Origin: Octopus vulgaris
Lineage: Eukaryota
Reading direction: 5' to 3'
Length of the DNA: 64,000 bases
Assembly: GCA_951406725.2 (NCBI GenBank)
Contig: OX597842.1
Coordinates: 16,058,001-16,122,000 of the forward strand
Below, in pieces: positions 32,301 through 41,300 of this stretch. The position numbers and the translations under genes are program-made. Every line of letters begins with the position of its first letter. Position 1 is the first letter of the stretch. The notes beneath the pieces are model-generated. The model did not search any database and had not been told where the DNA came from. It saw nothing but the letters and a program-made list of their open reading frames with translations.

Positions 32301-35300
32301 TATAGCGGTTTAAAGGACACGATTAAAATATTCAACATACATGGTCGTTGATGTAGCGTTCCATGCGTATATGTCTATACGACGTAATAACTGCAGTTAG
32401 GGTTTTAGTTATAATGATAACACTTGAGTATAAGTGACGTTGAATCATTATATTCTTACTTACTCAGAAAAAAGCCTAAATAAATAATATAACCTAAGAG
32501 AAGGCTTAAGGTAGAATAACCGAAAACCGCCGTAGAGGCTTTGAAGGCTAAGTATGGTGATTTAGAAATTTCTCGTTTTCTGAAGTTTGCATAAGATTAG
32601 GTGTGAGTTAGAGAAAGAAGATGGAAGCGTATTACCTGTGTCAAAACGTATAAAACATTTTAAGGAATCTGATCCTAGCAGCACGCCTGAACGTATTCAG
32701 GTGCTTAAGCAACACGTTGAAGACAAGCCAGGAAAGTCAATGAAGTCAATTACAAAAAGTTTCGAATCAGAAAAAAAAACAAACATTCAGAAATTTTGTG
32801 CTTGAAGACATCAGATACAAATCTTACGTCATAAGGAGAGTTAAATTCATGTCAGGAAAAAAAGAAAACAAAATCATTTAATCAGATCCAAAATACTTTT
32901 GAACAAATTTTAAGTGTCATCAGAAGATATTGTGATTTGGTTTGTCTCAGCGTTTCTTTGTAATCTATAAAACTCTTTTCAAATACCTTCCGTACCTTCT
33001 ATATTGTTGTGTCCTACTCGACACTAATTTGTCCCACCTCATCACGACGTACTTCGTCGTCTGTGAGACCAGCCCGAACAGCGTCCTCGCCGCCTGAAAC
33101 TGCTGACTGTGTTAGTCCAGTACTTCTTAGTAATGGAGCAACCCACTTCGCACATGGAGGCGTCCGCCACAACACCTTCCACTTTGAGGTTTGTATCTAT
33201 TTCTTCAAACAAGAATTACACACACACACACACACACATATATATATATATATATATATATATATATATATGTGTGTGTGTGTGTGTGTGTGTGTGTGTT
33301 CAAAATTTACACGCTATTATTATACATGTATAGTTCATTTCTACATCTTTCCCTTTCGCTACACTTTTCTCGGCAGAAGGGTATCATTGAGATTAGGAAC
33401 AAGACACACACGACAGATGTACTAAAATCTATACACGTACACATTTATAAAGGATGAATTGTCTTATTTATTTTTATTTGGTTCAGTCTATTTAAAATCT
33501 CAAGGAAACAACATCTAATCTCTTTATGTCAATTAGCCCGGTTGAGATTTTGCTCATATAATATTCTAACTGCAAATTTCATTTATTTTTTATGAATTTG
33601 TAACCGGTATTGAGTAAAAGTGAAACGATTGTAGGTATTCTAATTATCTATGAGTTAATAAATTAGATTATATCTATATACTCTCTATTTTCGTCTTGTT
33701 TATCATATGCTACATTTTTAATACGCAAACGCACACACACACACACACACACACACACACATATATATATATATATATATAAATTCTATTTGCTCCAGCG
33801 CCGCCGTGAGCGATACATCATTTGAACGATATAGAGAATAATCCATCAGCATTCCCCCAACGACCTCAAATTTAGTTTCAGAATCCATCCAAGGTTAGGA
33901 CCTTTGGCCGTACGTCCCCTCCACAATTCAGACTCACAAAACATTAAGACACTGCCACACAAATTCCTTTCCTCAACAGCCACTGCCTTATTTAACATTG
34001 TCTCAAAACAGATCAATGAGAGAAAGGACCCCATAACATTTGAAGGGAATCTGGAGAAATTTTCTTCAAGGGATGTCAGTAAACCACATATTCCTGGATA
34101 CAAATGAATCAACAAGAACTCCTTACTCAAATGGGCCATGATACCACAAAATATGACGTAGGAAGGATTTAGCAAACCCCATTCGGTTGTACTATTAAGT
34201 TAGACATGACCTGGACCCATCTTTGGTCGAAACATCTCTAAATTACATATATCTTCGACCATACCTAAGGAAGACGATTTGTTGCATAGTAGGCTCCGAA
34301 ACAGCATGATGTGTATTACTACCACAAACCACCGGGTTTTCTTAAGCACCTGAAAGTCATGGACAGGCTAGACAACTCGCCCTAAATTCCATTCAGTGGG
34401 GATGGGCGCCGATGCTTAACAACTTGTACTTTGACAGGATGATACCTCCTTCGTTGAATCGCAGTCTACCTTCAAACAAATAACACATTAAGTATTTGAT
34501 CGATGAAGCTTATAACACGAGTGCTGCTTCTATTTCACTTTTGAATATTCTGTTTCATATAAAGATTAATATCCTCTCTTGGCATTTCCCAGCATTTGAT
34601 ACCACGGAAAAGGATTCAATTATGGATTAGAGTTTAAGCCATTTAACATATAGTTATAGTCAGTGATATAGCTTGCAGCAGATCTTGTTCTGTACGTGAC
34701 ATTGAAAGTCACAACAATGACCATGCATCGTTGTCTGTCACTCAGAAAAAGGGACCTGATGTAAGTTACTTCACTTCCCTCTAACTTACGTTCAGGTGTT
34801 TTTAAGAATATATTCTCCTAAACCTGAAACGCAGCCGACACATCAACTAACATCGCACACACACACATACATATATATATGTGTATATGTGTGAGTGTGT
34901 GTTATGTGTGCGTGTGTGTATGCGTGTGTGTGCATGCGTGTATGTGTGTGTGCATTGTCGACTGACATTTCTCTTGACAGGACGCCGATTTTAAATAAAG
35001 TGTTATATAGTAATAATATACAAATTAGTGTCTCCAGGTGTCTGAAGTTACAAGAACTGTTGTTTATATAAACAGCTGTGTTACTTGTTTCTCTGGGATT
35101 GGTCAAGTGATGTACGCACCTACAATGGGAACGCAATAAAGTTTGAAAACTGATTACGGCGATTATGCATTTTCATATATTAACTAGTATACAATTTTCT
35201 TATTAAGCACTCACGTCTAATAAATCAGGTTAACTTATATAAGAAAATAAACATCGCTTACCAATGGAATGTTTCTCGTTACATAAGTTTCCGGTGCAAC

Positions 35301-38300: not shown

Positions 38301-41300
38301 TTGCATGTAAAACCTGAACATGTTTGACACTGCAAATTGCGTTGAAATAACGAGTAATCTATACAATACAAAAATATCCGTACTTAGGAACCAAATATGT
38401 AATGTATAAGAATAAGACGAAATAAACACTTTGTGGTGTAAACCAAATGTAAAAGTGTTGTGGTTGGAATCAATACATGTGAGATATTTAAAGAAAATTA
38501 TTAATGAAGACTATAAGAGAATGTTACGACTTTCATTTACAATTATTTCAGTCGTTAGAAATTCAACTGAGATTATTATGGAAGCTATTTGATGGCCTTT
38601 TCTATTTGTATTTTGCTCTCTCAAAAAAGTGCGAAAATTGTGGAAGAACTCAATTAAAGGGAAATAATTCTGAACTGGTGATTTATGCTTTTGTAGAATG
38701 AACTCCTTTATAAAATCTGTGAATGTCATTAAAAGTTTCTGACAACTGATGTTGCTGTGTTTACCTCGCCATAACCTAGCGGTTCGGAAAAAGACACTGA
38801 TAATACTGGAAACTAGCAGGCTTGTGGGGTCATCAGGAGAAACTACACACACACACGCACACACACACACATATATATATAACACATACTTATATATATG
38901 TATATATATATATATATATATATATATACATATATATATATATATATATATATATATATATATATATATACACATACATATCTATATATCTATCTATCTA
39001 TATATATACTATATATATATATATATATATATATATATATATATATATATATATATATATATATATATATACATATATATATATATATACTTGGCGGTTG
39101 GCGAAATACCGACAGAATACGGACAAAGGGTTGATTTATTTGACTAAATGGTGATGCTCCACCTTGGCCGGAATCACATAACTGAAATCCATTTTAATCC
39201 CGGTTATCTCTGCTAATATCTCTTCTAATATGTGTGTGTGTATTCAATGAAACTTTCACAGATATTCAAAAGTAGAAATGTTATAATGTCTAAATCTCTC
39301 TAAAGTAGAGATACAACAGCAGTACTGGGTATTAATATTTATTGACAAACAAACGTGGTAGTCTAGAGAAGTAGGACGAATGCTGCTGTTGATGAGCTCC
39401 GAGAAGGGATCGCATCTAACTAGCTACATGACGCACAAATCTGCGTGCATAAACCTTCGAAGAGGGGAAGTCGTCGATTTCCCTCTGCTGGTTTCACACT
39501 CACTGACCGGTTTCGGGGTAATTTCTATTAATCAATGTGGAGCAGCAGGGTTCAGTAGGGGTCACTTTTAACCTCTGTTTGAAGATTCTATTCAGTGAAA
39601 CACATTCCCCGACTTTCAGAAATAGAAATGTTATATTTCAAAATCTCAGCAGTAAGAGGTATTAATAGATATTGCCAAACTAAATTGGGAGTCCAGAGAA
39701 ATAGAACGAATGCTGAACAGAGGTCAACAGCGACCCATGCTGGCCTCGGCTGCTCCACATTGATAAGGAGCAACTACCCCGAAACCGGTCTGTTGATGCC
39801 AAGCCAGGAAGGGGAAGCTGATAACCTATCCCGTTCGAAGGTTTATGGACGCAGGTTTGTGCGTTATATAGCTAGCTAGAGGCGATCTGAGCTAATCAAC
39901 AGCAGAATTGGTCCTATGTCTATGGACTACCTCATTAGTTTGGCAATAAATAAGTACCAGTTGAACGCTGCCGTCGATGTAATCGACTAATTCCCTCCTC
40001 ACAAAATGATGTTATATATATATATATATTTATATGTATATATATGTATATATGTATATATATATATATATATATATATATATATATATATATATATATA
40101 TATATATATATATATATATATATATATATATATAAGTAAGGAAGAAATGGAGCCGAACGAAGATTCTACAAAATTCCTTTTTATTATTTTCTACACATGT
40201 TTCAAAGGCTGCAAAATCTCAAAACAAATGCTGCGCATTTGTTTTCAGATTTTAAATTTCTGGATTTTCCTGAAGAGAAAGCTGCAGAATGGTCTCCTTA
40301 TTCAATCCGAATTTGGGAATTTGCAGCCTTGAAACATGTTTAGAAAATAATAAAAAGGAATTTTGTAGAATCTTCGTTCGGCTCCATTTCTTCCCTTCAC
40401 TAAATATATAAAATTTCAATTATCCGCGCAAAAGCACGGGGCGAAACCCCATGGTCGTAACCTCAACCGTGTCTTTTCTGGTGTGATTTTTGCTACAGAG
40501 GTATCGGTTAAATTTTGAATAATCCGTAACAAGATAATTCATTTATCCATTTCATTAAATATATATATATATATATATATATGTGTGTGTGTGTGTGTGT
40601 GTGTGTGTGTATGTATGTATGTATGTATGTATGTATATATATATATATATATATATGTATGTTATGTTATTTTGGTTGTCGTTTTCATAAATAGTCAACA
40701 TTTTAATGTCCTAAAATTGATGAACCAACTAATGTGCTTTTCCATTTTCTTATTTGCAATGTATATATAAATATATATATATATATATATATATATATAT
40801 ATATATATATATATATATATATATATAGGGATATGGAGGTCAGTTGAGAAACAAGTGCTTGTGGCCTGGTTTCGTGGTTTGGCGCCAGGCAGACGGATAA
40901 AGCCTGTGTCCTGTCGGTTTCTAGAGAGATTAATGGGTTTGGAAAAGACATCTGACCCTTTTCCGGTCAAGGAAAGTTTAAGAAACCACCCTTTAATATT
41001 CGACGAGCTGGGTTTGTTAGTCAGTTGGCATCGGGATCAGTTTGGCAACAGGTCAGTTCTGGCTGAGACAGTGAGATGGCAACAGGGCCTTTTGGCAGTT
41101 CTGCCTGAGACAGCAAAAGGTCCGGAAGAGACAGTCAGTTGGCAAGGGATAGCAGTCGATGCGAGGGTGGTGATGGCGAGAGGCAACGACAACGTTGAGA
41201 AAGACATACACAGAGGATTGAGGAGGTGAGGGAGATTGCGGCGTGAAGGCATGGATTGCTGTATAGTAGGAGTTTGTAACTAGAAAATGTAACGGTTGTT

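Follow-up and report, generated by a model that had tools for sequence, protein, structure and literature searches.

An LRR-LU adhesion GPCR family expanded in octopus, with a likely mosaic member, frameshifted as assembled, on Octopus vulgaris contig OX597842.1

The stretch analysed here, which we call the window, comprises 64,000 nucleotides of Octopus vulgaris DNA (assembly GCA_951406725.2, contig OX597842.1, positions 16,058,001 to 16,122,000) and contains a minus-strand adhesion G-protein-coupled receptor (GPCR) gene in which a Ly6/uPAR (LU) domain is spliced between leucine-rich repeats (LRRs) and the HormR and GAIN domains. Its 17 exons, from 59668 to 10134 in window coordinates, and a further, doubtful LRR exon at 62665 together encode LRRs, the LU domain, HormR, GAIN, a GPS with an H-L/T site and the sequence TSFALLM, and seven transmembrane (TM) helices, whereas a signal-peptide exon and more LRR exons lie outside the window, up to about 33 kb upstream. 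The GAIN domain with its H-L/T GPS and TxFxxLM agonist, together with the secretin-class seven-helix (7TM) region, identifies the product as an adhesion GPCR; both consensus motifs are as given in PMC13197933. The gene belongs to a family expanded in octopus, for which we favour, with moderate confidence, a reading in which the LRR arm is a variable recognition surface, the LU domain is a disulfide-locked stalk, and the copies recombine their heads, stalks and cores.

The LU domain is encoded by two minus-strand exons with AG/GT ends, of 92 nt (38358-38267) and 184 nt (35445-35262), which splice in frame into a 12-cysteine domain between the exon of the LRR C-terminal cap (LRR-CT; 43041..43210, minus strand) and the first HormR exon (30250..30364, minus strand). 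The first LU exon carries Cys1-4 and finger I, and the second carries Cys5-12 with the finger II hairpin, a helix and finger III; the intron phase is 1 on both outer sides and 0 between the two. The pattern C-x2-CC-x4-CN occurs once in the six frames of the window and in none of 30 shuffles. An earlier first-pass annotation, made by a model from the letters alone, had read this pair as two in-frame exons giving a 12-cysteine peptide, which the exon ends and the translation confirm. It had also likened the pair to a shuffled module bounded by phase-1 introns, and this comparison gains from the presence of one to three LU copies in database models and from the absence of the domain in two paralogues.

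All three junctions listed in the first-pass annotation (43041-38358, 38267-35445 and 35262-30364) are supported by contigs of sequencing runs that we presume to be RNA; these contigs skip GT-AG introns, and the tissues of the runs are coded. One contig of 507 nt, from run X1, spans the 38267-35445 joint and extends at one end into the final 11 nt of the LRR-CT exon (43041) and at the other into 220 nt from the start of the HormR exon (30364). Among the four runs compared, the joint between the LU exons was present in three (X1, X2 and X7), the HormR-side contig end of LU in all four, and the LRR-CT-side end in three. Since these contigs join the LU exons to LRR-CT and HormR, a separate nested Ly6 gene is excluded, as it also is by the lack of an anchor tail: read-through past LU exon 2 meets a stop after 10 residues, with no anchor signal. 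A prototoxin is a stand-alone single domain, GPI-anchored or secreted, whereas this LU domain is spliced into a receptor on both sides. The contigs splice HormR straight to LU, no SEA exons lie in the intervening intron, and a search there for SEA remnants gave weak matches only, the best one on the wrong strand.

Sequence comparison and predicted models identify the domain as a LYPD1/Lynx2-type LU three-finger fold. Its best PDB sequence match is human LYPD1/Lynx2 (6ZSS, E 0.0013), with 12 of 12 cysteines aligned; ACVR1 and LYPD6 follow with non-significant E-values. The cysteine spacing is 2-4-7-6-16-5-10-8-2-0-4 in octopus vs. 2-8-8-7-16-5-10-8-2-0-4 in Lynx2, the latter derived from the disulfide list in PMC7582953. 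The two domains share the 12 cysteines, the last seven spacings (16-5-10-8-2-0-4, spanning the last eight cysteines) and a helix after finger II; they differ in the first spacings (2-4-7-6 vs. 2-8-8-7) and in that Lynx2 is a single GPI-anchored domain, whereas the octopus LU is internal. A scallop homologue has exactly the Lynx2 spacing, and the disulfide connectivity of the octopus domain is probably that of Lynx2. In a structure comparison of predicted Atlas models, paralogue P0023 (residues 119-203) gave TM scores of 0.68-0.84 to the 10 matches listed, nine of which are LU clusters, and the LYPD1 match is close enough to name the domain by. The three-finger identity proposed in the first-pass annotation is thus borne out by the cysteine alignment with LYPD1 and by the placement of the paralogue model among LU clusters. 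None of the Pfam LU models passes (Activin_recp at E 0.004 and UPAR_LY6_2 at E 0.05, each in three of eight members); a CDD LU match at E 6e-8 is given for one paralogue in supplement S3 of PMC6408891. A long AlphaFold model was poor (pLDDT 52), and Foldseek and VIA-align run on a model of LU plus SEA returned ferredoxin-like matches to the SEA part only. As a separate observation, a chordate cluster with VWA and Sushi domains contains an unannotated domain with a TM score of 0.84 to the octopus LU, and the Lynx2-type LU may be mobile elsewhere too.

Sequence variation differs between the LRR and LU exons. Among 33 LRR exons, compared in 51 pairs with similar flanks, the exons are 89% identical vs. 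94% for the flanks, and on the LRR strand face the proportion of nonsynonymous differences (pN) is 0.25 with positions fixed beforehand, or 0.30 with positions re-chosen after the data, vs. a synonymous proportion (pS) of 0.10. For LU exon 2 (36 exons, 76 pairs), exon and intron are 95% and 96% identical, with pN 0.043 vs. pS 0.055 (pN/pS 0.8), and over 19 more distant copies dN/dS is 0.52. The LRR faces thus appear to diversify and LU exon 2 does not; taken together with the two paralogues that lack LU, this makes a stalk module the more likely role of the domain, over that of a tethered prototoxin.

In the tethered-prototoxin reading, which goes back to a speculative suggestion of the first-pass annotation, LU would act next to the GPCR as a modulator of nicotinic receptors, of receptors derived from them, or of a Wnt co-receptor. 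The closest solved relative, Lynx2/LYPD1, is indeed a modulator of nicotinic acetylcholine receptors, the same suggestion has been made for the starfish receptor LyAr2 (PMC11595613), and the octopus family has been reported in the axial nerve cord, suckers and skin (PMC6408891). However, finger I is shortened by 6 residues compared with Lynx2, whose acidic loop I was proposed for target binding in PMC7582953. Both ends of the domain are fused, and it would stand beyond HormR and GAIN, far from the membrane. The domain is also dispensable, being absent from two paralogues, and its finger II tip is variable, with the Asn kept in 33 of 53 domains; we compare this Asn with the NxI motif of LYPD6. 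Beyond the fold itself, the proposed coupling appears unsupported, and we regard it as very improbable.

A less distant alternative is that LU itself binds a ligand (a TGF-beta/activin-type ligand, a matrix protein or a co-receptor) alongside the LRRs, with two LU types of differing specificity. Two LU types do exist, about 22-25% apart at the nucleotide level and found on different cores; the domain is weakly similar to the ectodomains of ACVR1, some database models have LU in tandem, and the cysteine spacing is kept in octopus, snail and scallop, the scallop protein matching Lynx2. Against ligand binding, LU exon 2 shows no excess of amino-acid change, two paralogues have lost LU, and LU cysteines have been lost in some members (P0001, P0002 and P0049). 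We consider this alternative possible, although unlikely.

If LU is a stalk, the receptor could work as follows. The LRR arm would form a variable recognition face, and LU would be a stalk module that possibly sets the shape of the ectodomain, like the stalk of GPR126 (10.1101/805515). By analogy with ADGRG receptors and to judge from the motifs, cleavage of an intact copy would take place at the H-L/T site, and engagement of the outer fragment, or a pull on it, would free the TSFALLM agonist and thereby produce a signal. Unless the two bases described next are an assembly error, the window copy as assembled would yield a truncated ectodomain, or a transcript that decays, and not a receptor.

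As assembled, the window copy does not have a single open frame to TM7. The first-pass annotation read the LU exons correctly; what it missed is that the GAIN exon at 24665-24492 (24492..24665, minus strand) is 2 nt too long. The private insertion, near 24507, shifts the frame and leads to a stop at the next junction. The two extra nucleotides are missing from all 11 of the 11 nearest paralogous exons and from one contig of run X15, and the insertion site resembles a hybrid of two sequence variants found in paralogues. No RNA-type contig of the window copy across this site was seen in the runs compared. A real allele and an assembly or consensus error are about equally probable explanations. 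Separately, compared with the window, one LU-less paralogue on contig C29 carries a net 5-nt indel in the GAIN exon, which breaks its frame with respect to the others, and it has a 100-N gap upstream.

The window gene is likely a mosaic in three parts, closest to different neighbouring paralogues. Between 45.0 and 25.1 kb it is 96-99% identical to paralogue a, from about 26 to 18.0 kb mostly 95-98% identical to paralogues r/d, and from 17.8 to 9.1 kb about 89-95% identical to two genes near C29:13.2 Mb, introns included in each case. The first switch falls near the GAIN subdomain A exon (25217..25439, minus strand) and the second just downstream of the TM1 exon (18202..18317, minus strand). 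The two genes near C29:13.2 Mb (G000:C29:13120000-13260000), which are oppositely oriented, lack both LU exons and run from LRR-CT directly to SEA. Across the family, LU and 7TM trees of 35 genes, in which LU and 7TM exons were paired by position, reject each other (approximately unbiased test, p 8e-56 and 2e-5). Among 57 pairs with LU at least 92% identical, 24 have 7TM at most 75% identical, and the reverse pattern is found in 8 of 37 pairs. Most of the conflict lies within a single, recently active subfamily. Ectopic recombination is, we infer, the source of the mosaics.

Alternatively, misassembly of a tandem array could have produced both the mosaic and the frameshift, in which case the window gene would be an ordinary intact duplicate. 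The evidence comes from one assembly, some LU and 7TM neighbours are in opposite orientation, and the two extra bases, with their hybrid look and their absence from the 11 paralogues and the X15 contig, would fit such an origin. However, the window and six of seven spans contain no gaps, with one 100-N run in one gene, and the longest exact stretch shared among the seven genes compared is 684 bp, which argues against misjoins. LU type A is paired with two different 7TM types, in four genes each and on several contigs, and the X1 contig agrees with the SEA-less LU-HormR join of the window. An artefact is about an even prospect for the frameshift and unlikely for the mosaic as a whole; for the two together, we hold it to be improbable.

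Recombination of heads, stalks and cores, as we favour it, may have a further consequence, which we put forward tentatively as somewhat doubtful: one ancient molluscan LRR-LU adhesion GPCR would have given rise in octopus to a recombining array, in which tandem copies exchange fast-evolving LRR heads, LU stalks of at least two types and signalling cores of at least four, the outcome being a combinatorial recognition code. If true, such an array code (for self and non-self, pathogen or cell identity) would operate in arms, suckers, skin and gills. Our literature search, the coverage of which left subscription journals outside, found no paper on mosaicism or SEA in the octopus family, and no description of a mix-and-match system for any adhesion GPCR family.

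Several observations weigh against our reading of the family as a whole. The older paralogues are congruent, with an overall Mantel r of 0.45; of the nine sinensis and bimaculoides database proteins that have LU as well as 7TM, none belongs to the mosaic subfamily; and mosaicism, as said, is drawn from a single assembly. The pN/pS pairs are non-independent and were compared without a codon model, and the LU selection data concern exon 2, which carries fingers II and III. LU is about as conserved as GAIN subdomain A (52% vs. 51%), which, like the kept cysteine spacing, is as compatible with binding as with a spacer function. Our own AlphaFold models, which recovered finger II together with the helix after it and the last strand, are weak in LU, with finger I misfolded. 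Finally, the extra segment of the family is ferredoxin-like, and its match to the GPR126 SEA region (Z 8.4; SEA domains Z 7.8-8.4) is tied with unrelated ferredoxin folds.

The paralogue count proposed in the first-pass annotation yields a large family, with at least 65 LU exon 2 and at least 56 TM5-7 exon matches in the genome. On three contigs lie 45 of the 65 LU exon matches; a same-strand 7TM exon is found 16-67 kb downstream of 38 of the 65 and upstream of one, and 37 of the 56 7TM exons have LU within 150 kb. Some LU/7TM neighbours are oppositely oriented, and for 23 of the 65 LU matches (contigs C31, C30, C5 and C2) no 7TM exon lies on the same strand within 150 kb. Some ten of these have exactly the same score, which suggests partial copies that have dispersed, or LRR-LU forms that are secreted. 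The database models have the layout LRRs, LRR-CT, LU (one to three), SEA-like plus HormR (zero to three), GAIN and 7TM. The family does include full-length members: LU, GPS and 7TM together are carried by 24 of 64 Octopus database proteins, a set biased by the LU queries, and the proteins found with the LU profile are all named Octopus (54 of 54). Paralogue d (G000:C29:14425000-14465000) has repeated SEA and HormR blocks that match model P0062, and in P0061 the intracellular C-terminus carries a Death domain, a module of the kind used in immune signalling.

The same LRR-LU layout is present in Argonauta, in the snail Nucella (full length), in transcript P0071 and in scallop (a fragment), and in a small tree the 18 octopus rows lie on one side of a branch (99/97), with six other rows only. 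Sequence comparison thus indicates that the design is molluscan and old and that the expansion is octopus-specific. No LU motif was found in frog ADGRG2 or in three crustacean adhesion GPCR matches, and a representative search returned no starfish or vertebrate protein at E 0.001, which reflects sensitivity rather than absence; its matches P0074 and P0079 look like chance cysteine-rich or repeat matches and were set aside.

The first-pass annotation had chosen ADGRA2 and ADGRA3 for comparison, receptors with an LRR-Ig-HormR-GAIN architecture. The likeness is real in that an LRR array stands N-terminal to HormR-GAIN with one small domain between, but that domain is Ig rather than LU, there is no SEA, and no ADGRA cluster was among the 10 Atlas matches listed. 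Some members carry PF26588, probably an ADGRA2/3-type GAIN model, which would favour this comparison; SSF57302, an accession that appears in a published table below, denotes a snake-toxin-like domain. ADGRA2/3 was not the best comparison found, given that a SEA-like domain precedes HormR-GAIN in most family members, as in ADGRG6 (it is missing in the window copy), and that the best GAIN and 7TM matches are ADGRG2, G6 and G4, with one vertebrate sequence only in the 7TM tree. The receptor core resembles ADGRG2/G6 more than anything else compared, a set that held no ADGRA sequence. ADGRG6/GPR126 and ADGRG2/G4 (6V55; 10.1101/805515) have a SEA-HormR-GAIN-7TM core, resembling that of the octopus members with a SEA-like domain, and give the best sequence and feature matches, whereas the tip of ADGRG6/GPR126 is CUB-PTX, that of the octopus family is LRR-LU and the window copy has no SEA; the likeness is one of similarity.

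Adhesion GPCRs with an LU domain are already in print. The starfish receptors LyAr2 and LyAp2 carry a Lynx2/LYPD6-like LU (PMC9410279, PMC11595613); LyAr2 is an adhesion GPCR named G2/G6-like and, as in octopus, has a Lynx2-like LU in its ectodomain (one copy, residues 224-305 of 1113 aa), whereas Asterias has two such genes vs. dozens in octopus. LU-GPCRs of molluscs and arthropods are described in PMC13719153, where a figure legend lists GPS and LRR, and the mollusc example may have the same LRR-LU architecture as octopus. Ritschard et al. 2019 (PMC6408891) reported an octopus expansion of group-3 adhesion GPCRs with 21 sequences, the octopus expansions being expressed in axial nerve cord, suckers, skin and gills. 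Their supplement lists, for O. bimaculoides, Ocbimv22016967m with LRR, a CDD LU match and 7tm_2, and Ocbimv22025843m with LRR, SSF57302, GPS and 7TM; their Death-domain member corresponds to P0061 with a constant 100-residue offset, which places the window family within the group-3 expansion. In the portions of PMC6408891 available, the text is silent on Ly6 and three-finger domains, an LU-type match appears in two rows only, no SEA match is given and mosaicism is not described. The available portions of PMC13197933 mention neither Ly6, three-finger or uPAR nor octopus, those of PMC6900090 do not discuss the octopus LU family, and PMC9068888 has no GPCR passage.

The claim of a lineage-specific, undescribed receptor class therefore fails: published LU adhesion GPCRs already include those of starfish, molluscs and arthropods, and a snail and Argonauta have the LRR-LU layout too. 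The first-pass annotation had itself named three outcomes that would undo its proposal; a failure of the three-finger fold and a nested gene were not what we found, but the third, an architecture already described, largely applies. The fusion is old and partly published and defines no new receptor class; what is new is the copy number in dozens, the likely mosaic of three neighbours and the GAIN frameshift in the assembly. A known and unexplained octopus GPCR expansion is thereby given a full anatomy. Exon-level mosaicism together with a fast LRR face makes these orphan receptors a testable case for a variable recognition system, like immune or cell-identity arrays, and the natural variants, in which LU numbers range from zero to three and SEA is present or absent, are ready tools for the role of LU inside a GPCR.

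The remaining exons of the window gene, all on the minus strand, begin with the doubtful 72-nt LRR exon (62594..62665), at whose donor end GC and a TTC repeat stand in place of GT, so that its use is uncertain and a GC-AG intron or a dead exon is possible. Two further 72-nt LRR exons, both phase 2-2, lie at 59597..59668 and, as the last LRR exon, at 54591..54662. HormR exon 2 with the start of GAIN (26742..26911) is followed, beyond the GAIN exons discussed above, by two GAIN subdomain B exons (21591..21743 and 20491..20619) and by the GPS exon with the H-L/T cleavage triad and the TSFALLM tethered-agonist (Stachel) motif, both intact (19573..19722). Downstream of TM1 are exons for TM2 (14999..15122), TM3 to the start of TM4 (13031..13175), TM4 and extracellular loop 2 (11972..12044) and TM5-7 (10134..10515). 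A last exon was sought downstream of 10134 and none was found; the TM5-7 exon may end the gene 3′ by read-through.

Mobile or repeated DNA is interspersed with these exons. A high-copy repeat at 22300-22830 is covered by very many contigs in every run. In an LRR intron, a PIF1-like helicase fragment (49781-50695, minus strand; Pfam E 4e-56) is probably a Helitron remnant. A Mariner-like transposase fragment was recognized by eye at 55655-55975 (minus strand), with no Pfam match at E 0.01. A 525-codon open frame at 46618-48195 (plus strand) has no Pfam match and by eye looks like a Penelope-type reverse transcriptase/GIY-YIG remnant, and pieces similar to it occur near 550-843 and 62734-63281.

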